DNA of 61,387 nucleotides from a virus. Its lineage: Duplodnaviria > Caudoviricetes. The stretch is taken from the IMG/VR virus record IMGVR_UViG_3300028103_000018, positions 1 to 61,387 of that record; one strand, given 5' to 3'. The number at the start of each line of letters is the position of its first letter. Position 1 is the stretch's first letter. The notes under the pieces were generated by a model. The model was given only the letters and a program-made list of their open reading frames with translations, was not told the DNA's origin and did not search any database. Below, in pieces: positions 3,732 through 60,449 of this stretch. The translations under genes and the position numbers were made by a program.

Positions 3732-4060
3732 TGGACAGAAATGAAGTGCTGGCCGCATTAAGCCGGGCTGAGGTGGACTACGTGAGGGTTCAGTCCGAGA
3801 CTAAAACTGTCTGGGAATTTCAAGAGGCTGAATGGAAAGCAAAGGCTCTACGCGCCGCCGCCGAGATCATCCGGGCCAGCGGGTGGAGGCCGATTGTGGA
3901 GGCTCCGGAGAAGAAGCAGCTTTTGGTCGGTGAGTGGGTAGATGAGTATTGGGACACTAGCTTGGTTTATGAAAAGGAGGTGGGTATTTATTGCGGCTAC
4001 ACCCACTACCTGCCCGAGCCCGAGCCGCCCGCGCGGGAGGTGCCCAATGATGGCGAGTGA
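3731..4060 (+). CDS. Hypothetical protein (C-terminal DUF551-like WRPI...THYLPEPEPP)
   Basis: ATG overlaps previous TGA; SD GGAGG. Confidence 0.6.
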   Translation: MDRNEVLAALSRAEVDYVRVQSETKTVWEFQEAEWKAKALRAAAEIIRASGWRPIVEAPEKKQLLVGEWVDEYWDTSLVYEKEVGIYCGYTHYLPEPEPPAREVPNDGE

Positions 4061-4274
4061 GCTGCGGGAGTTGGCTCGCGAAGTGCGCGAGGCTGATTTG
4101 TACAACGACAAGTTCGCCCAAGCCGCCGAGATCATCGAACTGATCGCGTGGGCGGAGGAGAACCATGTTGGAGTTGAGCGTGCTGATGGTTGGAATGTGT
4201 TCTTTTCCGGGAAATGGTATGTAGGCGACACCCTCATCTACACACTACGGCGGGCGAAAGAGGCGAGCAAGTAA
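4047..4274 (+). CDS. Hypothetical protein
   Basis: SD GGAGG; coupled to neighbours. Confidence 0.55.
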   Translation: MMASELRELAREVREADLYNDKFAQAAEIIELIAWAEENHVGVERADGWNVFFSGKWYVGDTLIYTLRRAKEASK

Positions 4275-5677: not shown

Positions 5678-6111
5678 AAGAAGGGAAGTCTCTTCCGGCG
5701 CTGCTCAAGCCGATCAGGATTGTGATAAACGATCCGTCGTTTCCTATTACTATGTTCGTGAAGAACGAATCCGGGGACATGCTTCTGAGCAAGACAGCAA
5801 GCAAGGACCTGTATCGAGTGGCGCAGCAGATCTCGAAGCAGATCAAGTTCCTGCCGATAGAGGGAGTATCCCTCAGGGTCGAGTATCACGACCGGAACAA
5901 GCTGAAGGATTACTCTCTGCTGCTTGATTCTGTATTGAGGGTGCTATACCGTGCGTGCATAATCGAGTGCATGTCGAGCAACTCGGTTGAAGATATATCG
6001 GTTAAGCATGTAAGGGGTGATAGGCGCAAGGTTGTCATCAACATTACGCCTACCAGGGTGTCAGCGCCAGAGAAGCAGGCTACCGGAGTCGAAGAGGAAT
6101 CTCCTTCTTGA
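5620..6111 (+). CDS. RusA-like protein with degenerate catalytic residues
   Basis: Pattern LRVEY..R..KDYSLLLDSVLRVL..ACII...VEDISV......VVINITP parallels RusA, but the DxDN/K/DD residues are missing. Confidence 0.45.
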   Translation: MEVLEQQGRTVGRKVGDAVEEGKSLPALLKPIRIVINDPSFPITMFVKNESGDMLLSKTASKDLYRVAQQISKQIKFLPIEGVSLRVEYHDRNKLKDYSLLLDSVLRVLYRACIIECMSSNSVEDISVKHVRGDRRKVVINITPTRVSAPEKQATGVEEESPS

Positions 6112-9100
6112 ACTCCTGAGCTTCTTTCGCGAGAGAGATGATCTGCTGTTGAAGGTCGTTCAGTTCATCTCTCTTTTCACTCGGGGACAGGTCGGGGTCA
6201 GACTGGATCATTCTCTTGGCGCGATTCAGTTCCCTGATCTCTTCGACGATTGGCTTGACCTGTTCCCCAACTTCAGCCAAGGTGTAGAGTTCTTCTTCCT
6301 TCGCCTCGGATAGATCCCTTCCGCTTTCGGAGTATGCCTTCAGCGTGGTCACTGCCATCTTCGCGGCTTCGTCGATCATATACAGATCTTCGACAGCCTT
6401 CTTTCCGTCAGGAGACTTGAACAGGGGGCCAAGGATGGGCAGGAGATACGGCTCAGAGAACCTCAGCCTTTCCGGCGTCGGCGCTCCACTCCCCATGTCC
6501 AGCACCCTGCCAACTACGTCGGCAATATATGCACCATTTGTTCCGAAGTATCCACGGATGAGGTGGTCAACCATCACAGGCGAGACCGGAAGAGGCGTTT
6601 CCGCTGCGGCCTTGCCTGCCAGTTTGGCAACCCCGGTAGTGTATTCGGTGTAGCGATCTTCCGGCAGCAGGCTGGCGAGGTACTGATTCTCAATCGGCCT
6701 CTGGGTGTAGAAGTCGAAGTTCGCCATGGCCTCAACAGCAGGCAGTGCAACCTGCGGGATGGGGTTGAACGATAAGGTATCCAGCACTGCTCTCTTCATC
6801 GCGTCAACCAACTCAGCGCCATCAGAGCGCCCAAGCACCATGGTGACCATTCTCTCTGGCAGCATCTTGCTGACAATGCCGAGTTCCTGGGGGATGGGGA
6901 ACTTGATAGCCGTACCCTCACGGACTCCAGGGACAAAGTCGATTGGCAGGAACAGGTTGGAATCCCGCTCTTCGTCGGTGGCATTGACCCAGGCCGGATG
7001 GTCCGACATGAGCAGGGCATAGATCGAAGACAACCCCATGAAGTACAGGAACCTAGTAACAGCCGCCTTCTTCATCTCGGAGCTAGCTTGGTTCGGCATC
7101 ATCTTCTCGCCCCTCATGGTCCGATAGAAGACATCTAGGCCCTGGATTCTGGCGTTGAAGAACGGGATCAGCGACATAGCAATCTGGAGACCACGGGAAC
7201 TTCCCTTGCGAGAGAAGTTGATGGTTTCCATGGCGGCGAACAGCGCCTCCGCTCGATCACCAGTCTTAGCCAGGACATCCTGATAGACCTTGGTTCTCGT
7301 GCTGGATTCCGAGATCTCAGCGGCACGTTCAAGGGTGTCGTACAACTTAGAGAGGGCGCTCTTCTGCTCCTCCCCGATCTCTTGCCGGATAGCCCTGGCA
7401 ACCTCAGACAAGCTCTTCTTCCTCAGGCCAGAGCTAGAGATGCCAGCCGACTTCAGCGCCCTGAACTCAGGAGAGTTCTTGTATGCCATCTCGATTCCCT
7501 TGAACATCTCTTTAGCCGGGGGCGTGAGATTGTTCCCAAATCGGCCAAGCGTCCATGCCTGGAGGGTGTCTCTAATCGTGTTCCTGATGATGAAGGTCGG
7601 AGACAGGGTTGTGCCTCTACGGAGAGCCTCGGTAGCCAACGCCATGCCCTTGAGAACGTCCTGGACAGGGAAGCCGGATTCAGCCACAGCGTTATACAGA
7701 GACTCATCTCTGACTTCATAGTGCTTCTTGACGCCATTCTCTCGAATGGTTATCACATTGGCACCCTGGGCAGCATCTCCCGGCTTGTCGATTGGCTTCA
7801 TATAGCCAGTCAGCACGCCGTCTCTGGCAACCTTTCTTGCGGAGAAGTTCTTCGCGGCAGTGCCTACCATGTAGTAGGTGTTGGCGACGATGTTCTCAAT
7901 CGCATCATTGACAGAGAGGTCTCGGCCAGTCAGCCCCTTGGGATTCGAGAGGTTGGTGACCTGAGAGTTCATCTTCGGCGCATCGACCTCTCCAGTATCG
8001 ACCGTCCCGTCCTGCGTCTTGATCGTAGGAATACGGTAGAACGGGATGTAGAACGAAGACTTCCAGGCTTTCGCCTCTCCCACAGAGATGAACCCACTCT
8101 TGCGGAGGATATCTACTAGGTTGTCGTTGTACTGCTTGAAGTTCTTGATCTCTGCGTCTATGTCTTTATCGTTGACCCACCTGTCGTATTCACGATTGAC
8201 ATCCTGTTCGGAGATCGTGCCGCCAGGATCCTTGTTAGCGGCCTTTAGATCTCTGTACCTTTTGGCGTAAGCAAAGTTGAAGAACGCATCGAGCTTGCCC
8301 TTCTCTTTCAGGCGCTGGAAGATCTTGAGCGGAGCTATTTCAGGGTTGTCGGCAGCGAGAAGGATACTTCCCTCCAGCTTGAAGCCGCCAGTTTCAAGGC
8401 CAGTCAGCGCCATGTCCTGGGCTTTGTCCATGAACAGGAGAGAGTGATACGAACCTTCTGCGGCGCTAAGGAACCTCTTGTCGCCAGTCTTGGAGTAGGC
8501 TTCAATCGCCATCAAGCGAACTGGATCATACCTGTCCACCATCTTCTGCCTGGAGAGGTTGTCTTTGAAAGTGTCTTTGATCTTGTCAATGATTCCCTTG
8601 GGCTGCTTCTTTACAAAGAACGGGGTGACAGCGCCGGAACCCTGGGGATTGGCGAGGGGATCGTTCTTGACCGCTTGGGATTGAGAGGGTGCGAGTTCTG
8701 CTTTGCCGGGAGTGGCAGTTTTTTCAACTGATTTAGCCGTGGCCTGAGTTACCGGGCCTGCCACGGCGGGAGCAGTAGCGCCAGTCTCGATAGACTTCCT
8801 GGCCTTGTCGGAGATGTAGCGGGACTTGCCAACCCTGACAATATCCCCACTGCTCATCATTCGCTTGATGATCCCATCCACATCTTCCGGCGCGATGTCG
8901 AGATCTTGGATCAGGTACTGCTGGGGGTTCTTGATCGGAGTCTTCCGGTCGAACTTCGAGGCTAGACCAGAGAGCGCCTTCTGATACTTCTCGTCAGCGG
9001 CCTCTTCTTCCTCCCCGTATACCTTGGTCTCTACTTCTACATCCTGCTGCCCGCCAACGCGAGGAGAGACCTCCTTCATGCCAACACGCTTCACCTTACC

Positions 9101-39420: not shown

Positions 39421-41949
39421 TCAGTAGTAGTCTGCTTTCTTTCTCGAAATAGGCTCTTCATCTTCATCAGACTGCGTTGAGATAAAACCGCCCTGTCTAA
39501 ATCTCAACAGAGCCTGAGTAGAACTGTCAACAAGATCATCGTGGTCAGAGTTTGGAAAAGAAGCAAACTGCTCGATAACCTCTTCCGCCCATCGCAACGG
39601 AGGAGCATAGACAAAGCCAGAAGCAAATATGTCGCTTACGGCATTAACACGAGCAATCTTGTCATTCCCTCGTGATGGAGTGTAATCCTGTATCGGTATG
39701 CCCATGCGGCGCATTTCAAAGACAAGGGGAGCGCCAGCAGCTTTTGCTTCGATGATGCAAGAGTCTGGCTTCCAATACCTGTACTCCTCCAGTGCCTTCT
39801 GCTTCAACTCTGGGAACTCTAGCTTGTCCTGGAATGCGTTCAGCAGGATGATGTTCGTCCGCTTCTTCCCGTCAGAGTCGCTGTCGTAGAAGACGCCCCA
39901 GGTCGTGCAGGCAGAGTAGTCCGAGCGGGTTCCCTTGGTCAGCGCCGTGTCCCAGCTTTGGATGATGTATTCGCAGTTTGGCGGGTCGTCCCTGTCCCAG
40001 ATCTTCCACCAGTCCCTCTTTATAAGCGCACCTTCTTCTGAGGTGGGATTCTGCTGGTACTGGGCAGACCACTTTGAAACAGGAAGTTCGGCACGGATCT
40101 TGGAGAGTTCGTCCAGAGACCAGAATTCAGGCCAGAGCGGCTGGCCGGAGGGCATGATGGCCGGGAACTCGATGACTTCCCACTCGTCCACGCCATCTCT
40201 CTGCGCTGCTGCTTTCAATATTTGCCCACAGAGATCACGCTTGCTCCAGCGCGTCATGACGACCACGATGGCACCTCCAGGCTGAAGACGCTGCCTGGGG
40301 CCTGATGTGTACCACTCATACACACCATCGTAGATTGCTGGATTTGTTGCAGCCAGAGTAGCTTCCTGTTCGGAGTTGTGGGTAACGACATACCCCCTGC
40401 CAGCCAGGAAGAGTCCATCTGGCCTATTCACGGTGATGCACTGAACGTCTCCCCGCAGGTCGGTCTTCTCGATCTTATAGGACCTCTGCCTCTTGTCGGT
40501 TGGAGTCCTGGTTCTCTCTCTCTTTCGCGGGAGCCTACAGCACCCGAACAACTTGAAGTTGACCCTATAGACAGTGGACTCGCTATACCCCTTGGCTTCG
40601 TATTGCTTGACCGACGCCTTGACCCCAAGGCTATGCACGAGTTCCCTCAGGCCAGAAGAGAGGAGGCGGTTCGTGTTGTTGAAGGAACACTGCCCGTCGA
40701 TGGTCACATTGCCATCAGAATCCATCAACCCCTGAATCAAGGAGAGGCGCTGCTCAACGGAAGATGTGAAATATTCCTCTGGGATGTGCTTGTTGTTGAG
40801 AACCCCGATGTCCCTCAACTTCACCATCAGCTTTAGAGCGCCAAAGGAGTACGGGTCAGCGTGATCTGTAGTCTCATACCCCGCAAGTTCAAACTGAGAA
40901 CGGATGAACTGAATATCGATGGTGTCGGCGCTTATCCTGCCCAAACTGGAAGTGCCGTTGCCAAGCCAGTAGCCGAGGACGTATGGGTCAATCGGCAGGT
41001 CCTTGTGCGGGTATTGAACCTCGTGGTGCCGAGGAAGGCATGGCCTGTTTGGCTTCGACCATTCCGCAAGCTCCCTGGCTGTCGCGTTCTTGACCTTGGC
41101 CTTCTTGATATTCGTGTCGGACATGTAGGGCCAGAGATGCCCGCCATCACACATGATGGATTCCCCATCATCCGTCGTCAGGCGATAGAGTTCCCTGTCC
41201 TTCCAGACCTCAGACTTCGCCAGCACCTCAACCGGAAGACCGTCAGGGCCGTACACAAAGTCGCCAACACGAAGCTCCTCGACAGTCTTGAAGCCATTTG
41301 GTGTTGGTATGCATTCAGTGGTAAGGAGTGCATGAGGGTCATCAATAATTAAAAGGTCACTCCCTTTACCACTTACAGATCCCCCGACGCCAATGGCAAA
41401 GTACTCACCCTGCTTACTGGTGTTCCACCTTCCTGCTGCTTTGGAATCTGATGACAAGGCGACTCCAGGGAATACTGTTTGGTAATGACTGCTACCCACT
41501 AGATTCCTGACCTTTCTACCGAACCCAACGGCCAATTCGGCTGTGTGAGAGGTTTGGATGATCTTTCGATCAGGATACTTCCCCAAGTACCATGCAGGCA
41601 AAAGATATGAACTGAATTCGCTTTTTGAGTGACGAGGCGCCATGTTGATGATGAGACGCTTACATTTGCCTTCAGCCACCCTCTCGAATGCGTCTGCCAT
41701 GATCGCATGGTGCCGACCAGGAATGAACGCAGGCCACATCTCCTTGACGAAGTCTATGAACTTGGTCTGGCACGCCTGGACCTTCAACTGCTTCTCATAC
41801 GCTTCCAGCAGGCTCATCAACTCCACCTGCTCGTGGTACGGCAGCTTCTTCGCGTTCTGGATGATGGTGTCGATCTGCTGCGGAGTGTACTTCCCCGCAA
41901 GGACATTCCTTATATTCACACCACCATCATCTCCCACCCAGTGCCACAA
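39421..41949 (-). CDS. terL: Terminase large subunit with intein
   Basis: MAPRHSKS (Walker A), LLIIDDPH (Walker B), QSWDTA and HDDLVDS nuclease motifs; likely start GTG 41919. Confidence 0.95.
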   Translation of the reverse strand: MWHWVGDDGGVNIRNVLAGKYTPQQIDTIIQNAKKLPYHEQVELMSLLEAYEKQLKVQACQTKFIDFVKEMWPAFIPGRHHAIMADAFERVAEGKCKRLIINMAPRHSKSEFSSYLLPAWYLGKYPDRKIIQTSHTAELAVGFGRKVRNLVGSSHYQTVFPGVALSSDSKAAGRWNTSKQGEYFAIGVGGSVSGKGSDLLIIDDPHALLTTECIPTPNGFKTVEELRVGDFVYGPDGLPVEVLAKSEVWKDRELYRLTTDDGESIMCDGGHLWPYMSDTNIKKAKVKNATARELAEWSKPNRPCLPRHHEVQYPHKDLPIDPYVLGYWLGNGTSSLGRISADTIDIQFIRSQFELAGYETTDHADPYSFGALKLMVKLRDIGVLNNKHIPEEYFTSSVEQRLSLIQGLMDSDGNVTIDGQCSFNNTNRLLSSGLRELVHSLGVKASVKQYEAKGYSESTVYRVNFKLFGCCRLPRKRERTRTPTDKRQRSYKIEKTDLRGDVQCITVNRPDGLFLAGRGYVVTHNSEQEATLAATNPAIYDGVYEWYTSGPRQRLQPGGAIVVVMTRWSKRDLCGQILKAAAQRDGVDEWEVIEFPAIMPSGQPLWPEFWSLDELSKIRAELPVSKWSAQYQQNPTSEEGALIKRDWWKIWDRDDPPNCEYIIQSWDTALTKGTRSDYSACTTWGVFYDSDSDGKKRTNIILLNAFQDKLEFPELKQKALEEYRYWKPDSCIIEAKAAGAPLVFEMRRMGIPIQDYTPSRGNDKIARVNAVSDIFASGFVYAPPLRWAEEVIEQFASFPNSDHDDLVDSSTQALLRFRQGGFISTQSDEDEEPISRKKADYY
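40375..41331 (-). mobile_element. Class 3 intein (319 aa) with LAGLIDADG domain, inserted after Walker B
   Basis: Begins ALLTT (Ala1), block B GGHLW, block F VQCITV, ends VTHN/S; LGYWLGNG and GLMDSDG motifs. Confidence 0.9.
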
Positions 41950-45032: not shown

Positions 45033-45108
45033 TGGCGCTCCCGGCAGGATTCAAACCTGCGACCTACTTCTTAGGAGGAAGTCGTTCTATTCGCTGAACT
45101 ACGGGAGC
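45033..45108 (-). tRNA. tRNA-Arg(CCU), CCA encoded
   Basis: 76-nt cloverleaf: acceptor GCTCCCG/CGGGAGC, anticodon arm ACTTC-CTCCTAA-GAAGT, T arm GCAGG-TTTGAAT-CCTGC. Confidence 0.92.
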
Positions 45109-48320: not shown

Positions 48321-48923
48321 CTACTCCCCCTCCCCGCCCCCGGTGGGGGTCTCCGTATCCCCCATATCGCTTGAGGGTAGCTGGGTGCATTCGGTGTCCA
48401 AAGTTGGACCGCTGGAGTCTTCAGCGCCTACGATAGGCGATGAAAGCCCTAGCAAAGATTGGAGTCTTGCCGCAAGGGTATCCACCATCGCGCCGGATAG
48501 CGCGGTATTCACCTCATTTGCTTGTGGCTCTTCGAACACGGAAGCATATCGCGTGCGACCAACCAGTTCTAAGGCTTTCAGTCGGGTGATGTCTGATTCA
48601 GTCTCACTGGCGGTTCGTGTCAATCCATCCATGACGAATGTTTGTAGCTTCTGTTTGTTCTCCCACCAGCGCGCAGTTCTCTCCGCCTCCATTGCATCCA
48701 TTGCTAGTTTGACGCTAGTCGCCTGCGAAGTCTTTACCGCGTTCGTTTGTAGCCCCTTCAAACTACTACCCTTGTAGTTGTAAGCCTGTCTGTAAGCCTC
48801 AGCTTTGCTCAACCCACCATAGACCAACCCCTCGGCAAACTTGCGCTGTTTAGGCGTCAACCGCGCCAATATCTCATTCACCTTCAATCGCTTACCGTCC
48901 GCATGTACTCTCGTTTGCGCCAT
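48321..48923 (-). CDS. terS: Terminase small subunit
   Basis: LTPKQRKFA.G...G....EAYRQAY HTH and D..RLKALEL.G motif. Confidence 0.7.
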   Translation of the reverse strand: MAQTRVHADGKRLKVNEILARLTPKQRKFAEGLVYGGLSKAEAYRQAYNYKGSSLKGLQTNAVKTSQATSVKLAMDAMEAERTARWWENKQKLQTFVMDGLTRTASETESDITRLKALELVGRTRYASVFEEPQANEVNTALSGAMVDTLAARLQSLLGLSSPIVGAEDSSGPTLDTECTQLPSSDMGDTETPTGGGEGE

Positions 48924-49038
48924 ACGTCTATTCTACCCCTACACGTGCATATGCACTCATCCCCCATTCCCGTTCCTATCAAATTGCGTGCGCACGCACA
49001 CACATTCTATTTTCCACCCGTAAACCGTTGATTCTACA

Positions 49039-49054
49039 TGTCCAAATTTGGACA
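49039..49054. promoter_or_regulatory. Perfect 16-bp palindrome TGTCCAAATTTGGACA, copy 1
   Basis: Also at 49808, 50095, 51038 and 54449; variants at 50216 and 48395. Confidence 0.85.
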
Positions 49055-49086
49055 AAAAATAAATCAGAAAATATCGCATCAACCCA

Positions 49087-49116
49087 TTGACACCATAAAC
49101 CACTATCGCTTACCAT
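49087..49116 (+). promoter_or_regulatory. Early sigma70 promoter
   Basis: TTGACA-N18-TACCAT. Confidence 0.6.
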
Positions 49117-49166
49117 GGGTTTGTTGGCACACGGTGCTACATCAAACCAAACCAAGGACACTCACA

Positions 49167-49793
49167 ATGAACACCAATTACCTGCTCACCTCTACCCCCC
49201 CTTCCGCCAAGGAGAATTACGAAATCATTCGGTCTAAGCAGGCCGAAAAAGCCGCGAACTTCATTGATTGCGCTATTGCGGTCTTTTGGATCAGAGAACT
49301 AAAGCAGTATGAGCAGTTGGGGTTCACGCGCCTTGAAGTCTTCCTCGCGTCACAAGGAATAGAAATGAGCAAGGCCGATTATCACAATAAGGCCAATCTT
49401 GGCGAGATGTTGCGTTGGATTAACGCAACCCGCGAAGAGTTGGTAGATTGCGGCCCTTCCGCACTTCAGGAAATTTCCCGCCTAGCCAAAGGCAAAGGCA
49501 TGGCGGAAAAGAACAGGGCCGCTATTTGCCGCCTAATCAATGGAAAGGCGAAGGGGCTGCTAGATGTAGATCAGGTCAAAGAACAGGTTCGGGCGATCTT
49601 GGGCGGCGACAAAAAACAGGCGGATTCCACCCCCAAGCCCCCCGCCGCCCCGGCCCCCGTCGAAACCGAAGACAACACCGACGAAACCGCGCCCACCTCT
49701 ACCGATTGGCGCACCAAGTACCGCGCCATGCTGGGACGCGCGGCCGACGAGGCCGACTTCCTCGCGATGTTGGCCGACCTGCGGGGGGAGTAA
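49167..49793 (+). CDS. Putative DNA-binding protein (DUF3102-like)
   Basis: IRELKQYEQLGF..LE.FL...GI.MS....Y pattern; Pro/Thr-rich tail; flanked by palindromes. Confidence 0.5.
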   Translation: MNTNYLLTSTPPSAKENYEIIRSKQAEKAANFIDCAIAVFWIRELKQYEQLGFTRLEVFLASQGIEMSKADYHNKANLGEMLRWINATREELVDCGPSALQEISRLAKGKGMAEKNRAAICRLINGKAKGLLDVDQVKEQVRAILGGDKKQADSTPKPPAAPAPVETEDNTDETAPTSTDWRTKYRAMLGRAADEADFLAMLADLRGE

Positions 49794-49807
49794 CTCCCCC
49801 CTTCAAG

Positions 49808-49823
49808 TGTCCAAATTTGGACA
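49808..49823. promoter_or_regulatory. 16-bp palindrome, copy 2
   Basis: TGTCCAAATTTGGACA just upstream of an RBS. Confidence 0.85.
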
Positions 49824-49836
49824 AACAGGAGACAAG

Positions 49837-50028
49837 ATGAGACTAGAAAAAGCGGAAAAGATCAAACAACTGGCCCTCGAAGTCCACAAGACAGTGGCAA
49901 GGATGTCTGCACTCGAAGGCGCAGAATGCAGGAGTAAGGCGTCCGCAGAGAGGGCAGAAGAGCGCCTCATGGAGCTAGAGCGCAAGCTGAATGAAGCTAT
50001 GCGCCAACTACACTCTATGACGTACTAG
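49837..50028 (+). CDS. Small coiled-coil protein
   Basis: SD AGGAG. Confidence 0.65.
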   Translation: MRLEKAEKIKQLALEVHKTVARMSALEGAECRSKASAERAEERLMELERKLNEAMRQLHSMTY

Positions 50029-50091
50029 TCGAAACGCGGGCTATGCCCGCTTCTACGGGAATTAGCCTACCCGTACTGATGAGACAGGCTA
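50028..50091 (+). ncRNA. Type II hammerhead ribozyme 1 with pseudoknot
   Basis: GTC-GAAA-stem III-TTC, stem I TACGGG/CCCGTA, CTGATGA, GAC; loop TAGCCT pairs with 3' AGGCTA; predicted cut after 50053. Confidence 0.85.
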
Positions 50092-50094
50092 GAG

Positions 50095-50110
50095 TGTCCA
50101 AATTTGGACA
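50095..50110. promoter_or_regulatory. 16-bp palindrome, copy 3
   Basis: TGTCCAAATTTGGACA. Confidence 0.85.
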
Positions 50111-50145
50111 AACATGGTAGGGCGTGAACAAACTCCATGCCCTAC

Positions 50146-50175
50146 TTGACAAATAAACTATCAGTGTGTTACACT
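50146..50175 (+). promoter_or_regulatory. Early sigma70 promoter
   Basis: TTGACA-N18-TACACT with TGn; palindrome variant TGTCCAAAATTGGACA at 50216-50231. Confidence 0.7.
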
Positions 50176-50249
50176 GTAGTTAACAGTGGCACAGACCGCT
50201 GAACAACAAGCTGAGTGTCCAAAATTGGACACGCGATAGGAGACAAGTT

Positions 50250-50981
50250 ATGAAGTACACCGCTGGATTCAGCAAATTGCTGACCTATGGCACGGCGAAG
50301 ATCGACAAGTCCCGCGCCAACTCAAACGTGTGGGAGGGCGTGGTTTACATGTCCCCTGCGGACGAGTCTGTCCCGTACGGTGGCGCGAATATGTGCGCCA
50401 ACGCTACGGTGGGTTGCAAGTCCCTGTGCCTGGGCAAGTATGCGGGACGCATGCATATGCCCAATGCCATGCGGGCGCGGCTCAATCGCACGTTCCTGTA
50501 CTTGCGGGAACGCGACAGATTCTATGCCCAGCTGGGCAAAGAGATCGACGCGCACGTCCGGCGCTGCCGCCGGAAGGGTATGCGTCCCGCCATCCGGCCT
50601 AACGGGGCGCAGGATCTGCGAGGACTAGGCGCGTGGGTGGCGCGGTACTGCGCGAAAAAGTACGGGAACGAGGTCGCGGTTTACGATTACACAAAGATCG
50701 CGCCGTCCCAGATCGACGGCTACCACCTCACCTACAGCCACTCCGAGCGCCCGGAATCCTTGCGCGTGTCCCTCGATTGGCTGGCGCGTGGCGGTAGCGT
50801 GGCGGTAGTTTTCGCCGTCCGCAAGGGCCAACCGCTACCAGAATCCTGGCACGGATACCCTGTCATCGACGGGGACAAGTCGGACGCGAGGTTTATGGAC
50901 GCGCCCGGTTCCGTAGTCGGTCTGCGGATCAAGGGGAGCTTCAAGAAGGCCATCGGCAACCCGTTTGTGGTTCTAGCGTAG
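50250..50981 (+). CDS. Gp88-family Cys-rich protein
   Basis: C.NAT.GC..LCL, RPNG..D, YDYTK, YHLT.S, VIDGD.SD.RF.D..G.VVGL. Confidence 0.75.
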   Translation: MKYTAGFSKLLTYGTAKIDKSRANSNVWEGVVYMSPADESVPYGGANMCANATVGCKSLCLGKYAGRMHMPNAMRARLNRTFLYLRERDRFYAQLGKEIDAHVRRCRRKGMRPAIRPNGAQDLRGLGAWVARYCAKKYGNEVAVYDYTKIAPSQIDGYHLTYSHSERPESLRVSLDWLARGGSVAVVFAVRKGQPLPESWHGYPVIDGDKSDARFMDAPGSVVGLRIKGSFKKAIGNPFVVLA

Positions 50982-51037
50982 CGCCGGATGTATAGGGTAG
51001 GCGCGTGCCTACCCTTACCAGAGTGTCCAATCGAAGA

Positions 51038-51053
51038 TGTCCAAATTTGGACA
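51038..51053. promoter_or_regulatory. 16-bp palindrome, copy 4 (extra half-site at 51024)
   Basis: TGTCCAAATTTGGACA upstream of an RBS. Confidence 0.85.
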
Positions 51054-51075
51054 AACCAAACCTCAGGAGAATACC

Positions 51076-51354
51076 ATGCCTACCCTCACCCCTTCCCTCG
51101 AAACGCCAATGCGGCGCGCCATCAACAAAAACCTTCTCAAGTCTATCGCCGGGCAGCTGATCTTCTGCCCCGTCTGTAGCGACATTATGGACTACCGCCG
51201 CACCGTGGCCGTGTCATTCATGCGCGGGGACAACCCCGTGGCAACTAAGGGTTGCTGCGGCAGCTGTTTTGATGACGTGATGCGCGGCAATGCCGAACGC
51301 ATCGCGCAGGAACATAACCTGACCCTCGATATCGTCGACGGGCGCGCCAAGTAA
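51076..51354 (+). CDS. Zn-ribbon hypothetical protein
   Basis: CPVC...CCGSC; SD AGGAG. Confidence 0.7.
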   Translation: MPTLTPSLETPMRRAINKNLLKSIAGQLIFCPVCSDIMDYRRTVAVSFMRGDNPVATKGCCGSCFDDVMRGNAERIAQEHNLTLDIVDGRAK

Positions 51355-51381
51355 CAGAACCAAACCAAACCAGGAGTGTAT

Positions 51382-51705
51382 ATGTACATCATCATCTCGC
51401 GGCACCCTGCCGCTATCGAGTTCATCCGCGCCAACGATGCGCGATTTCTGGCGGCACCCGTCATCACGGGCAACGCCACGCCCGACGATGTGCGGGGCAA
51501 GGTCGTAGCGGGTAATATCCCGCTATCCCTCGCATCAATGGCGGATGAGGTGGTAGCCGTCGAGTTTGACGGCGCGCCTCCGCGCGGGGCGGAGTACACC
51601 GCCGCCGACATGGTCGCCGCTGGTGCGCGTCTGGAAGCGTATGTGGTCAAGCGCAGCATCGCGTTCGACTACTGCGTGACGCACTCTCGCAGCGATGGGT
51701 ACTAG
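51382..51705 (+). CDS. Csx16 (Cas_VVA1548)-like protein, putative cOA ring nuclease
   Basis: ISRHPAAIEF...GKVVAGNIPLSLA...PRGAEYTA.DM...GARLEAYVV matches the Csx16 pattern SRH.GA.EW...G.LP..LA...RG.EL......GARL..Y.V as recalled. Confidence 0.75.
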   Translation: MYIIISRHPAAIEFIRANDARFLAAPVITGNATPDDVRGKVVAGNIPLSLASMADEVVAVEFDGAPPRGAEYTAADMVAAGARLEAYVVKRSIAFDYCVTHSRSDGY

Positions 51706-51768
51706 GTCGAAACACGGGGGTTCCCGTGTCTGTGAGGGATAGCCTCCTCACACTGAAGAGACAGGCTA
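51706..51768 (+). ncRNA. Type II hammerhead ribozyme 2 with pseudoknot
   Basis: GTC-GAAA-CACGGG/CCCGTG-TC, stem I TGTGAGG/CCTCACA, CTGAAGA, GAC; pseudoknot TAGCCT/AGGCTA; GUC site, cut after 51730. Confidence 0.92.
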
Positions 51769-51778
51769 GGAGGGTTGC

Positions 51779-51940
51779 ATGAAAGCCAAACCGTGGAGAG
51801 TTATCTCCACTGCCGATCAGGACGGCAGAAACCACACCATCAGCATCTTGGGGCCTGGAGAACTGACCCCTGACGATGCGTTCGTTATGTTCCAGTGCGA
51901 CACCCTCGAGGACGCCATCCTCGCCATGGAGGAGGAGTAA
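51779..51940 (+). CDS. Small acidic hypothetical protein (53 aa)
   Basis: SD GGAGG immediately after the ribozyme. Confidence 0.6.
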   Translation: MKAKPWRVISTADQDGRNHTISILGPGELTPDDAFVMFQCDTLEDAILAMEEE

Positions 51941-52120
51941 ATGTATCGCTTGCAGATGAAATCAGGTGTCAAGCGCGACACCTGGAAAGACAGTAGCGGG
52001 TCGGGGTCTATCAGCAGTCTGAAAGACATTTGCACCGTTTGTCGGATGGACTACCGGATCATCGACGGTAGAGGAAAAGTGGTATGGGCCGATCTGTGGC
52101 CTAAAAAGGGGAGAAAATAA
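51941..52120 (+). CDS. Small hypothetical protein (59 aa)
   Basis: SD GGAGGAG; abuts both neighbours. Confidence 0.6.
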   Translation: MYRLQMKSGVKRDTWKDSSGSGSISSLKDICTVCRMDYRIIDGRGKVVWADLWPKKGRK

Positions 52121-52371
52121 TGTACATCAAAACTTTCGACGGCGCTGCCGTCATCTTCTGCGAAGAGCAGGACCGCACCTGCTCTCACCCGGACGGTCAC
52201 GAGTTGAACCAAGACCGGGGCGCTCTCAACGGGGAGTACGGAAGCTACTGCATCCACTGCTCCCACTATGTCGGGCGGGTCGAGTACTTCAGCGCGGCCA
52301 ACGGTGCCGAAGAGGCCCAGGCCTACGCCCAGGTCATGCTGGGCGCTACCGGACCTGTTGAGGTGCGGTAA
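52120..52371 (+). CDS. Cys/His-rich hypothetical protein
   Basis: TAATG coupling; CSHPDGH..CIHC. Confidence 0.6.
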   Translation: MYIKTFDGAAVIFCEEQDRTCSHPDGHELNQDRGALNGEYGSYCIHCSHYVGRVEYFSAANGAEEAQAYAQVMLGATGPVEVR

Positions 52372-52401
52372 GCGTCCAGCATTACTGGGAGTAAATCTAT
52401 T

Positions 52402-52596
52402 ATGTACATGACACAAGCGGAGCTGGCTTTAGCAGAGCGTACAGCCAATATCCTCGCAGAACTCATTAGCTCTATCGAGTCTCGTGATCCCGGGCACAGG
52501 GAGATCGCCGTCCTAAAAGATGCATACGGGAGTATTACACACGCCGCAGTGCGCGGCATTCCCCGAGTCAACGTGGAAGAGGTGCGCCATGCGTAA
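52402..52596 (+). CDS. Hypothetical protein
   Basis: SD GGAG; operon context. Confidence 0.55.
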   Translation: MYMTQAELALAERTANILAELISSIESRDPGHREIAVLKDAYGSITHAAVRGIPRVNVEEVRHA

Positions 52597-52801
52597 TCCA
52601 CCTCTCGACGCTGAAGTCTGCCGCGAGATCGTGCGCGAGATCCTCGACGAAGAGGGTCCGCTCACGGTCGGGCAGCTTGCCATCCGCATGGGGCGCGTGT
52701 TCCAGGTGAACACCGCTTACCTTGCGATGACACTGTGCAAGAAGCGCAGTGGGTTCGTGATCGACAACGGCATCGTATATGCCACGCGCCGGGGAAAGTA
52801 A
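52589..52801 (+). CDS. Small winged-helix-like protein
   Basis: IVREILDEEGPLTVGQLA pattern; SD GAGG. Confidence 0.55.
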   Translation: MRNPPLDAEVCREIVREILDEEGPLTVGQLAIRMGRVFQVNTAYLAMTLCKKRSGFVIDNGIVYATRRGK

Positions 52802-52811
52802 AGGAGAACAA

Positions 52812-52985
52812 GTGACCAGGAAGAATGCGCGATTCAGCATCTCCGAGATCGAGGATGCAGATGGAAACATAACAGAGTGGATCGTGTCCGACAGTGAGAA
52901 CGATTACGACCCGGTGTCTTTCGGCTCAGAGCAAGAGGCGCTGGATGAGGTAGAAACGCTAATGGAATCGGAGGGTATCAAATGA
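52812..52985 (+). CDS. Small acidic protein
   Basis: GTG start after AAGGAG; D/E-rich. Confidence 0.6.
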   Translation: MTRKNARFSISEIEDADGNITEWIVSDSENDYDPVSFGSEQEALDEVETLMESEGIK

Positions 52986-53101
52986 AGTGCCGTGTGTTCA
53001 AAACGATGGAGCGGTACGACTCTGTCGTAAAAGATGTGTTAGGGTATACGTTGTGGGCGCTGCTGTTCGCAGCAGTGATCTACATGAGTTTCAAGGCATA
53101 G
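52982..53101 (+). CDS. Small membrane protein (39 aa)
   Basis: ATGA overlap; hydrophobic VLGYTLWALLFAAVIYMSF. Confidence 0.45.
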   Translation: MKCRVFKTMERYDSVVKDVLGYTLWALLFAAVIYMSFKA

Positions 53102-53110
53102 GAGAGTACG

Positions 53111-53326
53111 GTGAAACGAGTCAGCATCACGATTCAATCCTGTGGGCGCTGCCCACACTACGGGGAGACGTATATCCCCTACCCCAACGGGCGCGGACAC
53201 CTAGCAGAGTGCCGCAACTTCCCCGCCCCTGTCCTGATCCAGCGGCCCGACGAAGAACACGGGCCGTTCCCCGAGTGGTGTCCGCTGGACGCTGCGCCAG
53301 AGGCTTCGCTGAAGAGCGCCGAGTAA
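53111..53326 (+). CDS. Cys-containing hypothetical protein
   Basis: I.SC..CP.Y...C...FPEWCPL motif; SD AGGAG. Confidence 0.65.
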   Translation: MKRVSITIQSCGRCPHYGETYIPYPNGRGHLAECRNFPAPVLIQRPDEEHGPFPEWCPLDAAPEASLKSAE

Positions 53327-53336
53327 AGGAGGCAAC

Positions 53337-53660
53337 ATGACCTACAGCATGATCATTTCCACTGAAGACGTTTACGGGAACAGCAACCCCAAGATCCCGT
53401 CTGGCTACGTGAAGACCGGGGAGTTTCGACCGCCTCGCACTGGCGACTTCTTCCTGAACTCCACCGAAACTTCTGCCATGCGGGCCTCGCACAACCACTC
53501 GACCGGGAACCCGCGCATTATCCTGCGAAAGCTCGACGAGAAAGAGTTGTTCATCCAACAGGCGCTCTCGTTCCTGAAATCACTGCCTCTCAATGGGGGC
53601 CGCTACTCTCAGGATCACTGGGATCTGATCCTTAAAGCGGAGGAACTGCTCGATGTTTAA
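53337..53660 (+). CDS. Hypothetical protein
   Basis: SD AAGGAGG; TGEFRPP..GD.FL...PRIIL motif. Confidence 0.7.
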   Translation: MTYSMIISTEDVYGNSNPKIPSGYVKTGEFRPPRTGDFFLNSTETSAMRASHNHSTGNPRIILRKLDEKELFIQQALSFLKSLPLNGGRYSQDHWDLILKAEELLDV

Positions 53661-53976
53661 CCCTACCGAACTCTTCGGCGCGATCAGCGCAATCGCCCTG
53701 CGCGATGGCTTTACCCAGCTATCCGCACTCCGCAAGCGCCTGGAAGATCAGCCAAGCTTGGCTTCTCAGGATTGCTACATCATCCTGAACGAGTTCGAGT
53801 CCGACATCTTCCCGGTCACTGACTGCGAAGCCAAGTACACGGCTACGGTGAAGCCGTTCTTCATGAGCTTCGCGAAGAAGCACCAGACCTACTTGTACAA
53901 GTCCCAGGAGGAGTCCATCGATACGGTTGAGCGTGAAACCATGGTCAACCAGATTATCGACGGCGCGAAGTTCTAA
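53653..53976 (+). CDS. Hypothetical protein
   Basis: SD GGAGG; coupled to neighbours. Confidence 0.65.
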   Translation: MFNPTELFGAISAIALRDGFTQLSALRKRLEDQPSLASQDCYIILNEFESDIFPVTDCEAKYTATVKPFFMSFAKKHQTYLYKSQEESIDTVERETMVNQIIDGAKF

Positions 53977-54383
53977 TGCGCCTAGTGATCGACGATGCCG
54001 GGAGATCCGCATCCCGGCACCCTCAAGAACAGAACGACTGCTCCGTCCGCGCTATCGCAAAGTGCCTGGGTATCCCCTACGACAAGGCATACTCCATGCT
54101 AGTCCGGCAAGGCAGGGAGCAGGACAAGCCGTTCCATGTAGTCGCGTATCTCAAGCGTCACCGCAAGTTCGACGGCGCTCAACACAAGGTCAAGTACGGG
54201 TATCGAATCATCAAGCTGCATCAGTTTGCCGAGGACAACCCCGAAGGCTCGTATGTAGTCCTGGTCAATCGGCACGTCACAGCGTGCATAGACGGGATCA
54301 TATACGACGATCATACACTGGCACCCTATCGCAGAGTGTATGCATCCTGGAAGCTCAAACAACACAAGGTAGCCACAACTTGA
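53976..54383 (+). CDS. Putative Cys-His papain-like fold protein
   Basis: NDCSVRAIA...G.YVV....HVTA.IDG.IYD. Confidence 0.6.
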   Translation: MRLVIDDAGRSASRHPQEQNDCSVRAIAKCLGIPYDKAYSMLVRQGREQDKPFHVVAYLKRHRKFDGAQHKVKYGYRIIKLHQFAEDNPEGSYVVLVNRHVTACIDGIIYDDHTLAPYRRVYASWKLKQHKVATT

Positions 54384-54409
54384 CAACATACTTGTCAGTG
54401 TGTTATCCT
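54380..54409 (+). promoter_or_regulatory. Early sigma70 promoter
   Basis: TTGACA-N18-TATCCT; spacer TCAGTGTGT shared with the 50146 promoter. Confidence 0.7.
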
Positions 54410-54448
54410 ATAAACAAGTGGGCATAAGTCCACTGCAACCCAACAAGA

Positions 54449-54464
54449 TGTCCAAATTTGGACA
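54449..54464. promoter_or_regulatory. 16-bp palindrome, copy 5
   Basis: TGTCCAAATTTGGACA between promoter and RBS. Confidence 0.85.
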
Positions 54465-54484
54465 CAAACCCAGGAGACAATCAC

Positions 54485-55513
54485 ATGTTCGCCACTCAAT
54501 TCAAGAAGGCTCTTCAGTACGCCATCAATGCTCAGGTCCCCCTGTGGGTCTGGGGTCAAGCGGGTATCGGCAAGTCTGCCATCATCCGCACCGTCACCGC
54601 CGCCCTGCGCCGGGAGCATATCGACGTGCGCCCTACTCAGATGGACCCCGTTGACATGGGCATCCCCTACGTCAAGGACGGTGTCTGTTTCCGCGCCATC
54701 CCCAACTGGCTCCCCAAGGACGGCAAAACCCTGATCGCCGTCGAGGAACTGCCGGATGCCCCCATGTCCGTGCAGTGCGCCCTCTACCAGTTGGTCCTGG
54801 AGCGCCGCCTGGGCGACTACCAGCTTCCTGACGGCGCGTACATCTGCGCCACGGGCAACCGGGCCAAGGACGGCGGCAATTTTAACCAGCCCCCGGCACC
54901 CTTGATGAACCGATTCCTGCACCTCGAGCTTGAGTCGGGCTACGACTCCTGGCTGGAGTGGGCAGCGGGTGGATACAGCAACGACGAGGTGGAGATCATC
55001 GCCCCTCGCCCGATCACCCCGCACATTCGCCCCGAGATCCGCGCCTTCTTTGGCTACCGCAAGGATCTCCTCGTGCAGCAGCCGCACAAGAACGACTACG
55101 CCTTCTGCACCCCGCGCTCTGTCGAGTTCCTCTCCCGCATCCTTGACCAGCAGCCGAGCGAGGACGTGGTTGGCGAGATGATCCGTGGCACCATCGGCAG
55201 TGGCACCGGGTACGAGTTCCTGGGCTTCCTGAAGACGTGGCAGAGCCTGCCGCAACTGAGCGCCATAATCCGCGATCCCGAGTCCGTCCCCGTGCCGAAG
55301 GATCTGTCGGCCAACTACGCGACTGCGATCTACTTGTCCTCCAACTGGGACAAGCAGAACTCGAAGCCGCTCTGCACCTACATCCAGCGCCTCTCGCCGG
55401 AGTACGGATGCCTCTTCCTCAAGGACGTGTGCAAGCGGGACAAAGCTGCACCCACGTCTCGCCCGATCATCGAGATGATCTCTCGCCCCGAATACTCGCA
55501 GTTGATGTTCTAA
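54485..55513 (+). CDS. MoxR-like AAA+ ATPase
   Basis: WGQAGIGKS (Walker A), IAVEEL (Walker B), ATGN, LMNRF, TPRS. Confidence 0.85.
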   Translation: MFATQFKKALQYAINAQVPLWVWGQAGIGKSAIIRTVTAALRREHIDVRPTQMDPVDMGIPYVKDGVCFRAIPNWLPKDGKTLIAVEELPDAPMSVQCALYQLVLERRLGDYQLPDGAYICATGNRAKDGGNFNQPPAPLMNRFLHLELESGYDSWLEWAAGGYSNDEVEIIAPRPITPHIRPEIRAFFGYRKDLLVQQPHKNDYAFCTPRSVEFLSRILDQQPSEDVVGEMIRGTIGSGTGYEFLGFLKTWQSLPQLSAIIRDPESVPVPKDLSANYATAIYLSSNWDKQNSKPLCTYIQRLSPEYGCLFLKDVCKRDKAAPTSRPIIEMISRPEYSQLMF

Positions 55514-58652: not shown

Positions 58653-60449
58653 CTACATGTAGTCGGGGTCGCTGTCATCGCCAAACATTTCCGCCACCGA
58701 AGGCGATTGGTTCAGGCTAGGCAGTTCGTAGTAGGTACTCGTGGGGATGTCGTACTTCAATCGCGCCATCCCTTGCTTTCCTACCCACTTGAAGCGGCAC
58801 TTCCAGGAATGGATCTCAACGTACCCATCCATGTCTCGGCGCTGTACAGTGATCCCGCAGTCGGTCTTGTTGTACCAGTGGGCTGACCCGCTGATGTCGT
58901 ATCCAGTCGGCACTGGGATCTTGCCGCCCTCTCGCATCATTTTGGCCGGGTGCGCCACGAACCAGACGTGTACCTGATACGTCTTGGCAAACGCAGACAC
59001 GCGGGATAGCATGCTGGACACCGCTTCAGTCTCGTTTGAATCCTTACTACGCTGAACCTCGATGCAGTTGTAGGGATCTATAACCAACCCCTTGATACCG
59101 AATCTAATCACGGCAGCGTATGCTCTATCCAGCAAGCTGTCGAGTGTAGGCAGATCCTTCGAGGATGCAAAGTCCAGGAAGACGAAGTGATCCTGGCACC
59201 ACCTGTGCGCCCTCTTCGCCTCATCAATCGTCATGCACCCAGGCCAACCCTGGAAGAAAGGCTTCTTCATGTACATCTCGGACAGCTTCGCCAGATGTTT
59301 GGCGGGTTCGTTCTCCATGCTGGCTACAGCGAACTTCCACTCGTTACGCTGCGCCAGATTCACCATGATCTGGTCGAGGAAGTTGCTCTTGCCGGAGGAG
59401 GGGACGCCAGTCACTACGGTCATCTGCCCCGGCGCTACAGTATAGATCTCGTCCACGTTGGCAAACCCTGTACTCTCACCCTTACCATCGCCCTTCAGGA
59501 ACAAGTCCATGACCTGCTCGTAGTAGTGGTCAGCGGTGTTCAGCGCCGTCAATGGAAGGGGCTTGGCGTTGTCGAGGATGTTCTGTAGTGCATCCCTGCC
59601 GTGCTTCATCAGCACATCGTTCAGGTCTTTGCAGTTGTTCGGGTAGTCCAGGGTCAGGCACTTCGAGCGCCCGAATCTGCGGGTCAGTTCTTCTTGCAGG
59701 GCTTTGCCGGGTCCATCGTTGTCGGTCGCCAGGACGTAGGTCTTGAACCGCTCCAGGAAGTCCTGCAACTCCGAGAACCACGAGAACCTCTGGCTTGTGT
59801 TCTTCTCTCCCTTCGCTGGCGCTCCAGCAGGGACAGACACCCAGTTGGAAGCGCCAACCTCAGCCACACTCAGGGCATCCATCTCGCCCTCGCAAATCAC
59901 AAGCGGCAGTTCGTAGTCGAACTTCTGCTGCAATCCAAACAACAACCCTCCAGCGCCAGGATCTTGTGTGAACTTCTTCTCTCTCACCGAGCGATACTTG
60001 GAGGAAATGAGAGTGCCGGATAGATCGTAGTAGGGGAAGGCGATGCACCGTGTCTCCCCTCCCTCACGGAAGAACTTAGTCACACTGAAGAGCTTCGCTT
60101 CGGTCGCTGTCCTGAGCGAGATCCCACGCATCTTCAGGTACTCCATGTGATCAAGCTCTACTCGCACTTCACCCAGCACTGGTTGTGGCGCTGGCTCCGG
60201 CTCGTCCGCAAATAAAGAATCGAGGTCTTCAATGTTCATATCGTCGTCTCCCATGTCTCCAATCACTCCCGAGATAGAGCAGTGGTGGCAGCAGTACACT
60301 GCCCCCTTGTCTCCGTGCGACCAGGACAGCACTGGCTCTGTCGAGTTCCTGCGGTTCGGGCTGCATGCAGGACACGGTGTTCTCCATGACCCACGGTTGC
60401 TCTCCATGAACTGCTCTGCCAGTCTTCGTAGTTCGGGCGTCTCCATCAC
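58653..60449 (-). CDS. Primase-helicase (T7 gp4/Twinkle-like)
   Basis: CPAC..CHHC Zn finger; TOPRIM EGEMD and DND..G; GVPSSGKS, VIDPYN, VAHPAK, DISGSA. Confidence 0.92.
   Translation of the reverse strand: MMETPELRRLAEQFMESNRGSWRTPCPACSPNRRNSTEPVLSWSHGDKGAVYCCHHCSISGVIGDMGDDDMNIEDLDSLFADEPEPAPQPVLGEVRVELDHMEYLKMRGISLRTATEAKLFSVTKFFREGGETRCIAFPYYDLSGTLISSKYRSVREKKFTQDPGAGGLLFGLQQKFDYELPLVICEGEMDALSVAEVGASNWVSVPAGAPAKGEKNTSQRFSWFSELQDFLERFKTYVLATDNDGPGKALQEELTRRFGRSKCLTLDYPNNCKDLNDVLMKHGRDALQNILDNAKPLPLTALNTADHYYEQVMDLFLKGDGKGESTGFANVDEIYTVAPGQMTVVTGVPSSGKSNFLDQIMVNLAQRNEWKFAVASMENEPAKHLAKLSEMYMKKPFFQGWPGCMTIDEAKRAHRWCQDHFVFLDFASSKDLPTLDSLLDRAYAAVIRFGIKGLVIDPYNCIEVQRSKDSNETEAVSSMLSRVSAFAKTYQVHVWFVAHPAKMMREGGKIPVPTGYDISGSAHWYNKTDCGITVQRRDMDGYVEIHSWKCRFKWVGKQGMARLKYDIPTSTYYELPSLNQSPSVAEMFGDDSDPDYM

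Follow-up and report, generated by a model that had tools for sequence, protein, structure and literature searches.

The river phage recorded in IMG/VR as IMGVR_UViG_3300028103_000018 was analysed over its whole record, a stretch of 61,387 bp that is called the window below. The record has linear ends, a GC content of 55.5% and a CheckV completeness estimate of 100%. The gene under study, a csx16-like gene, occupied positions 51382–51705 on the plus strand and encoded a protein of 107 amino acids (aa). It started with ATG at 51382, ended with the stop codon TAG at 51703–51705, and was preceded on the same strand by a ribosome-binding site, AGGAG at 51372–51376 (read from the sequence), 5 nt upstream of the start codon. 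Directly upstream was an open reading frame (ORF) of 92 aa (51076–51354, plus strand) with cysteines in the arrangement CxxC...CCxxC, which is probably co-transcribed with csx16. A perfect 16-nt palindrome, TGTCCAAATTTGGACA, was found at 51038–51053, 11 nt upstream of the AGGAG of the 92-aa ORF, and headed the two-gene unit orf92-csx16. Downstream, a type II hammerhead ribozyme (HH2, 51705–51770, plus strand) began with the last base of the csx16 stop codon, and it was followed by an ORF of 53 aa (51779–51940, plus strand) whose ribosome-binding site touched the 3′ tail of the ribozyme. No family was found for either of these two ORFs.

Type III is the CRISPR type that signals through cyclic oligoadenylates (cOA). 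A preliminary description of the locus had assigned the gene to the Csx16 (VVA1548) family and had proposed that it was a captured ring nuclease used against type III CRISPR or against the cyclic oligonucleotide-based antiphage signaling system (CBASS). The ORF is real and its coordinates were given correctly. The most likely reading of the analysis, which we hold with moderate confidence, is that the gene encodes an anti-type III CRISPR ring nuclease.

Family membership and predicted structure

The 107-aa protein matched the Pfam model PF09652 (Cas_VVA1548) with 32.9 bits against a gathering threshold (GA) of 25 (E = 7.6e-8), and residues 4–89 were aligned to positions 2–90 of the 91 in the model. 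This hidden Markov model (HMM) search was the check that the preliminary description had suggested, and it returned the profile match. A six-frame Pfam search of the record gave a single PF09652 match, which was the same ORF. The window protein was aligned with 25 relatives (A1), and 15 CRISPR-linked cellular Csx16 sequences were aligned separately (A2); hhalign joined the two alignments with a probability of 98.9% (E = 2.6e-17) over 96 columns. The protein search yielded 152 relatives at E ≤ 0.001 from 164 candidates, and PF09652 was present in 119 of 120 among the matches listed. PHROGs held no family for the protein.

The N-terminal SRH motif was present as S6-R7-H8 and was invariant in 26 of 26 aligned relatives, as were R68 and E71. 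Four blocks were common to the viral and the cellular sets: SRH (after strand 1), G-x-[LI]-P-[LV]-x-LA, RG-x-E and ARLE-Y. At the presumed cOA site, the R-H of SRH, the G..P and the RG were kept relative to the cellular set. The phage set had invariant residues of its own (N45, E71, and Y72), among which N45 and Y72 were newly invariant compared with the cellular set. The Pfam match, the hhalign comparison and the shared motifs together indicated that membership in Cas_VVA1548/Csx16 is secure at the Pfam level, as the preliminary description had supposed, and that equivalence of the active sites is not secure. AcrIII-1 (Crn2, DUF1874) is a viral ring nuclease for cyclic tetra-adenylate (cA4). 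The 107-aa protein gave no Pfam match to DUF1874 at E ≤ 10, and besides Cas_VVA1548 it matched only SMC_hinge, weakly; the claim that it is distinct from AcrIII-1 was thus upheld.

The pairwise ratio of nonsynonymous to synonymous substitution rates (dN/dS) with three close relatives was 0.10–0.14 (6 pairs from 4 sequences; L031 was left out because of its differing length), which is the mark of a selected coding gene. An antisense ORF of 155 aa (51192–51659) overlapped csx16.

AlphaFold2, supplied with A1, predicted a fold of alternating strands and helices, with a predicted local distance difference test score (pLDDT) of 89.6 and a predicted template modelling score (pTM) of 0.80. A homodimer was predicted from two copies with two molecules of adenosine monophosphate (AMP), and its interface score (ipSAE, interaction prediction score from aligned errors) was 0.59 (0.63, 0.57, and 0.59 in the individual runs) vs. 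0.00 for the best control. In the calibration of this score, 20 of 30 proteins solved as one-chain pairs attained that mark, as did 1 of 23 whose structures are single chains, counts that are only a rough guide here because our own alignment and the AMP ligand were used. The runs had at least 89% of their contacts in common, and the pLDDT of the partner was at least 87. The predicted interface was symmetric, with the strand at residues 85–94 packed against itself and residues 47–52 and 56–61 also taking part, and the conserved G-N-x-P loop adjoined the two-fold axis. CARF dimers have a shared ligand site near the two-fold axis, and the position of the loop in the model would match that site.

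When the A1 profile was run against PDB sequences, 193 matches were obtained, with designed ankyrin repeat proteins first (E ~1e-8, over a 27-residue stretch). An ankyrin identity was rejected, since the fold of the model was strand-helix and not ankyrin, and the likeness was regarded as motif-level convergence. In the viral Csx16 clade, the residues 'DDVRGK.V.GN.PLHLAA' come close to the ankyrin consensus and could cause false annotation.

Viral and cellular Csx16 loci

No CRISPR-like repeat array and no Cas10 palm domain were found in the window, and among 46 window ORFs compared with Pfam or PHROGs, the Csx16 match was the only one to a cas family. The statement in the preliminary description that cas genes and an array are absent was thereby supported. 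The gene lies on a mobile element away from cas genes, which is the location looked for in an anti-CRISPR, and the element is a complete phage with terminase, portal and integrase. The Cas10 palm domain was absent from all 32 viral records (the window and 31 related ones, 10 of the 32 at least 90% complete), whereas 11 of 18 cellular csx16 genes had a strong Cas10 palm match 3–13.5 kb away on their own contig. These cellular genes came from a PF09652 search of 401 Pseudomonadota genomes, in which 18 of 19 matches were above the cut-off. For three of the remaining seven the strong Cas10 match was on a different contig, and for the other four, in fragmented assemblies, there were weak matches or none. 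Of ten neighbouring genes of cellular csx16 that were scanned, nine carried domains of Card1, Csx1-CARF, Cas_APE2256, Cas_NE0113, or Cas6.

Within 6 kb on either side of the 32 viral loci, csx16 was the only real gene common to all, and the sole other cluster occurring in more than six of them was the antisense ORF of csx16 itself.

The maximum-likelihood tree comprised 45 rows (28 viral, 15 cellular, and 2 others), with L037 and L042 left out as being in the wrong frame and L036 and L053 as exact duplicates. A branch with support of 100/98 divided it. One side contained 27 of the 28 viral rows and a plasmid protein of Allomeiothermus silvanus; on the other side were all 15 cellular rows, the viral row L058 and Methanobacterium virus Drs3. 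Reciprocal HMM scoring gave the same division. The viral profile scored 26 of 28 viral rows at 85–182 bits and the cellular rows at 47 bits or less, while the cellular profile scored the cellular rows at 134 bits or more and the viral rows at 68 bits or less. This deep split indicates that the window gene is not a freshly captured cellular gene. It is a member of an old, divergent Csx16 clade borne by mobile elements, and the word 'captured' in the preliminary description has to be given up for any recent event.

Searched against 1.84 billion cluster representatives, the viral profile gave 1,836 matches at E ≤ 1e-3, of which 880 passed a limit of 1e-10 and 235 one of 1e-30; at that database size the best cellular row would attain only E = 2.4e-7. 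The A1 scan of IMG/VR found 31 distinct viral loci from 49 pattern matches, on contigs of 4.7–119 kb. The same scan of one genome per species (185,579 species) found 1 relative among 33 pattern matches, in an alphaproteobacterial metagenome-assembled genome; this relative covered query residues 27–91 only and was apparently frame-broken, and PF09652 had no match in that genome. The cellular-type A2 scan of IMG/VR gave 5 pattern matches and no relative, and absence from either collection is weak evidence because both scans were pattern-based. The clade of the window gene was not found in the 401 sampled Pseudomonadota genomes. Among 50,697 GenBank phage records, the window protein had one weak match (36% identity over 57% of the query, E = 4e-3), and a cellular Csx16 sequence matched only Methanobacterium virus Drs3 (MH674343.1/NC_062738.1, two records of one virus).

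The A. silvanus homologue is a protein of 671 aa, annotated as Csx16, on plasmid pMESIL02 (NC_014214.1; L059, 11998–14013). Its Csx16 domain was confined to the N-terminal 85 residues (71 bits on the Pfam model), and no cas gene was found within ~14 kb on either side. It followed an ankyrin-repeat gene and was located among small plasmid genes with ParB, Rad52, and RNase H. A two-domain form recurred among the relatives (P0122, P0123, P0130, P0135, and L038 at 7992–8672), in which the Csx16 domain was joined to a conserved C-terminal domain of ~130 aa without a precomputed Pfam family. Other fusions of the Csx16 domain involved HTH_17 (P0137), the RNA polymerase alpha C-terminal domain (P0078), and PF24875 (P0131).

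Ribozymes, palindromes and the surrounding genome

HH2 scored 40.2 bits with Rfam RF02276 (GA 37, E = 1e-5), so the ribozyme that the preliminary description had placed next to the gene was found at the stop codon itself. It was absent from the whole-window Rfam scan and was detected by a local scan. The cut was predicted at 51730/51731. In the predicted pseudoknot, the loop at 51740–51744 pairs with the tail at 51764–51768, which abuts the GGAGG (51769–51773) of the next ORF. The elements of a type II hammerhead were all present, namely the core CUGANGA and GAAA, the GUC cleavage triplet, closed stems I and III, and the pseudoknot. Across 8 hammerhead copies from 5 phages, 92.3% of the cells were paired, compared with 33–46% when the partners were slid, and compensatory change was seen in 9 of 21 pairs, including 2 of the 5 pseudoknot pairs. 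A second type II hammerhead in the window (HH1, 50027–50093, plus strand) scored 38.8 bits (GA 37), with a predicted cut at 50053/50054.

An ad hoc scanner applied to the 32 loci found a hammerhead directly 3′ of csx16 in the window and in four close relatives (L002–L005), and none in that position in the other 27. The coupling is thus lineage-specific, and adjacency of csx16 and a ribozyme as a general rule was rejected, since it was seen in only 5 of 32 loci. In L045 a hammerhead was located 469 nt downstream of csx16, and weak distant matches in L040 and L054 were discounted. In L005, csx16 was situated between two hammerheads (3656–3721 and 4059–4109), the upstream one scoring 42 bits with a copy of the palindrome directly before it at 3640. 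A Twister-P5 match was observed directly 3′ of a distant csx16 homologue in L006 (6428–6507, on the contig that also holds L042). Its score of 36.1 bits was below the gathering threshold of 37.6; if genuine, it would be a second ribozyme class at the same position in an unrelated phage.

In the four close relatives the Csx16 proteins were 90–94% identical, and the neighbouring proteins were 30–67% identical. At the DNA level, a 400-nt block comprising csx16 and the hammerhead was 84–89% identical, compared with 66–76% or undetectable similarity in the flanks. Such conservation above the flanks suggests either unusually strong constraint on the block or its exchange among these phages. No homologue of the 92-aa ORF was found in the loci of the four relatives. 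Perreault et al. 2011 (PMC3088659) described type II hammerheads with a pseudoknot between loop I and the 3′ tail that flank single genes or short blocks in phage DNA, and suggested for those in prophages a part in the processing of long transcripts. The arrangement in the window is the same as in those prophage cassettes. It differs from what that article describes in that the ribozyme travels with one identifiable cargo gene, in a 400-nt block conserved above its flanks.

The palindrome occurred in 5 exact and 2 near copies, all within 48395–54464, against 0.01 expected. Apart from the copy heading orf92-csx16, exact copies were located at 49039–49054 (the start of the rightward gene block), 49808–49823, 50095–50110 (one base after HH1), and 54449–54464, and the near copies were at 50216–50231 (1 mismatch) and 48395–48410 (2 mismatches). 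The same 16-mer was present in 3–6 copies in each of L002–L005, although the flanking DNA has diverged. Four copies were 3–11 nt upstream of an AGGAGA ribosome-binding site, and the others followed HH1 or were near promoter-like matches. The palindrome was found in the 5′ leaders of several rightward genes, where it yielded spurious ORF starts with 'MSKFGQ'. A sigma-70-like match, TTGACA-18-TACACT, was found at 50146–50175 on the plus strand, with similar ones at 49087–49116 and 54380–54409. The pattern TTGACA-18-TAnnnT matched 6 times against 3.1 ± 1.8 expected, a count that was not significant. These promoters, if used, would place the palindromes in 5′ leaders, and the palindrome may be either a DNA operator or an RNA hairpin. 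The preliminary description had spoken of a palindrome-controlled early operon; the palindrome was borne out, whereas 'control' and 'early' remain conjectural.

The window stretch was present in riverine metagenome runs, including 6 RNA libraries. Four metatranscriptome runs were compared, and in all four the contigs were at least 99% identical across the region. The bin holding most of csx16 (51471–51737) was covered in three of these four runs. Contig depth in RNA runs cannot rank genes, and uncovered parts carry no evidence. Each of the four had a contig whose first base was exactly 51747, without a loose end. That start, 16 nt 3′ of where HH2 is predicted to cut, is only a weak hint of an RNA end. 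Alternatively, the assembly graph may break where a cassette common to co-occurring phages stops; position 51747 is the end of the shared cassette (~51777) minus 30, as expected from a 31-mer assembly graph.

The virion and packaging genes (terminase, portal, and structural proteins) formed a leftward block at ~6.1–48.9 kb. A rightward block extended from the divergent region near 49.0 kb past the record end and into the first 6 kb, and it comprised small ORFs, a MoxR-like ATPase, an HNH protein, a PD-(D/E)XK nuclease, ERF, an integrase, and a dUTPase. A GP88-family protein (50250–50981, plus strand; PF17338, 94.8 bits; phrog_1617) was encoded between HH1 and the unit orf92-csx16. The primase-helicase (58656–60449) was on the strand opposite to the rightward block. 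The integrase (1196–2047) indicates that the phage is temperate. A single tRNA-Arg (CCT) was located at 45033–45108 on the minus strand. A protein of 1,949 aa (6083–11929, minus strand) contained an LPD38 'large polyvalent protein' domain at residues 1645–1809, and its C-terminal 740 aa matched PHROGs families of unknown function. The large terminase (842 aa; 39424–41949, minus strand) probably contains an intein: its residues 389–464 matched homing-endonuclease and LAGLIDADG domains, and its relatives aligned in two pieces with ~60% covered. The closest terminases (52–54% identity, in two pieces) were those of an uncultured phage, Pelagibacter phages, and a gammaproteobacterial phage, and cyanophages were at 44%. 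The relatives of the ATPase came from mixed Gram-negative hosts, so that no single host was indicated. A megablast search of 49000–55500 against GenBank phages gave no match.

Proposed function and its meaning

Viral ring nucleases with an anti-CRISPR function form an established class. In the accessible literature, AcrIII-1 and AcrIII-2 (viral SAVED) are characterised viral families, and AcrIII-3 (viral Csx15) and Crn4b have been proposed from mobile-element homologues. Csx16 was predicted to be a ring nuclease by Makarova et al. 2020, who also noted a partial similarity between Csx16 and DUF1874 (both as reported in PMC8284326). One Csx16 fully degraded cA4 in vitro and left cyclic tri-adenylate (cA3) and cyclic hexa-adenylate (cA6) uncut even at ten-fold enzyme; Csx16 was recorded in 68 type III loci, and a survey of 28,114 phage genomes listed AcrIII-1 in 36, Csx20 in 4, and Csx16 in 2 (Hoikkala et al. 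2025, PMC12409355). Since Csx16 is a proven cA4 ring nuclease and was noted in two phage genomes, the idea of a viral Csx16 is not new. Drs3 is probably behind the two genomes of that survey. Like the window, Drs3 carries a stand-alone Cas_VVA1548 gene in a virus genome, but its gene falls on the cellular side of the tree and that of the window in the mobile-element clade. No description of the viral clade was found in the listed passages of the papers that searches on Csx16 and on viral ring nucleases returned. What is new is that the window gene is part of a large, deep mobile-element lineage of Csx16 whose set of invariant residues is altered, and that a hammerhead is firmly joined to it in this lineage of phages.

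Homology and context carry the reading of the gene as an anti-type III CRISPR ring nuclease, from which we infer binding and cleavage of cA4 and protection of the phage. The rightward transcription unit of a temperate phage, probably an early one, would give rise to a small homodimeric protein of the Csx16 family. The dimer would bind the cA4 made by host Cas10 once a type III complex had recognised phage RNA, and would open the ring to linear products, so that cA4-dependent CARF effectors (such as Card1/Can2 and Csx1/Csm6) stayed off. HH2 would probably cut the polycistronic RNA, leaving the orf92-csx16 message with a stem III hairpin at its end and providing the following gene with its own 5′ end. 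The proposed role is like that of AcrIII-1/Crn2, a small dimeric phage enzyme destroying cA4 to disarm type III CRISPR, but the window protein would do so with a different sequence family, as it showed no DUF1874 or ring-nuclease structure match. AcrIII-2, AcrIII-3, and the Crn4b of phages and plasmids follow, in the accessible reports, the same strategy of cellular cOA-binding folds redeployed by mobile elements, and they too are of different families from the window protein. The nearest counterpart is cellular Csx16 (PF09652/TIGR02620), with which the protein shares the Pfam family, a length of ~100 aa and the order of motifs; a dimer was modelled for cellular Csx16 in PMC12409355, as one was predicted here. 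The window gene differs from it in having no Cas10 or CARF effector close by.

Several observations weigh against this reading. The window protein was only ~28% identical to cellular Csx16, and it missed the stricter NCBIfam model TIGR02620 (16.8 bits, below the cut-off of 46.35); the cellular comparators scored 82–139 bits on PF09652. The phage clade did not keep five residues that were invariant in the 15 cellular sequences (W17, D26, H31, D41, and C56 in L010 numbering), and three of these were polar residues replaced by others (D26 by A or P, H31 by N, S, or A, and D41 by K or R). Foldseek with the AlphaFold2 model found no CARF or ring-nuclease structure at E ≤ 0.001 (0 of 301 in PDB and 0 of 329 in BFVD), so that any likeness of fold is drawn from sequence; sequence and fold searches found no structure of Csx16 in PDB, which is consistent with this null result. 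The cellular comparison set represented one phylum only, Pseudomonadota. Early timing was deduced from position and from promoter-like matches that were not above chance in count, the contigs from RNA libraries may hold carried-over DNA, and a host with a cA4-signalling type III system is presumed.

The replaced residues bear on the possibility that the protein binds cA4 or another cyclic oligoadenylate and hardly cleaves it, as a sponge and not an enzyme. Csx15 provides a precedent, as it is described as sponging cA4 well while working only very slowly as a ring nuclease, and the same article (PMC13148439) also refers to sponges that phages have for other cyclic nucleotides. However, S-R-H, R68, and E71 were invariant in 26 of 26 relatives, and the clade had the invariant polar residues N45 and Y72 of its own; invariant polar residues suit chemistry as well as binding. 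The type III signal is moreover described as so abundant that sponging 'could be a fruitless approach' (PMC13148439), and we consider a sponge unlikely. The altered site and the deep split from the cA4-specific cellular enzymes would also suit a ring nuclease or binder for another signal, such as cA3, cA6, or a CBASS-type cyclic oligonucleotide, which would counter a defence other than cA4-based type III CRISPR. Ring nucleases can have broad specificity, as Crn4 illustrates, and both phages and plasmids carry homologues of Crn4b (PMC12830947). Nevertheless, the one Csx16 tested was specific for cA4 even at ten-fold more enzyme (PMC12409355), its core motifs are common to the window protein, and no direct evidence of another ligand was found. 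The anti-CBASS variant in the preliminary description likewise found no support, and this explanation as a whole seems improbable to us.

A role outside lytic counter-defence was given a somewhat lower probability. The gene might work for the prophage and its lysogen, for instance by weakening the self-targeting of prophage transcripts by type III systems, or its product might bind a nucleotide that has nothing to do with immunity. The phage is temperate, and among its relatives the Csx16 domain was fused to varied partners (the ~130-aa domain, HTH_17, the RNA polymerase alpha C-terminal domain, and the remainder of the 671-aa plasmid protein). Yet within the rightward block the gene stood among small ORFs and genes for replication and not beside the integrase, and the damping of type III signalling in a lysogen would need the same biochemical mechanism. 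Anti-defence genes are typically scattered as lone genes over unrelated phages, and this was the pattern over the 32 loci. The last alternative, that the ORF arose by chance or is a decayed, functionless remnant, could appeal to the GC-rich stretch and to the overlapping antisense ORF, which shows that long ORFs arise easily there. The low dN/dS, the 152 homologues at E ≤ 0.001 and the pLDDT of 89.6 speak against it, and we regard it as negligible.

A broader proposal about the family is put forward tentatively, as plausible though somewhat doubtful. The large, ancient, mobile-element-specific Csx16 lineage (at least 880 clusters at 50% identity outscoring all 15 cellular sequences), with its remodelled active site, may be a fourth family, by sequence, among the viral ring nucleases directed against type III CRISPR, maybe commoner than AcrIII-1 in uncultivated phages; in one phage lineage it would move as a self-contained cassette whose 3′ hammerhead frees the message from the early transcript. 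Viral enzymes that destroy the type III signal decide the outcome of infection. If the clade is active, it would add an abundant viral family, so far confined to metagenomes, and it would offer a natural comparison in which one fold serves the cellular 'reset' and the viral 'sabotage' with differences at three otherwise invariant positions. The viral profile separates viral from cellular Csx16 in annotation, where the NCBI label 'CRISPR-associated protein Csx16' for such phage genes misstates their context. The tight coupling of csx16 and ribozyme makes this lineage a tractable case for the purpose of phage hammerheads.

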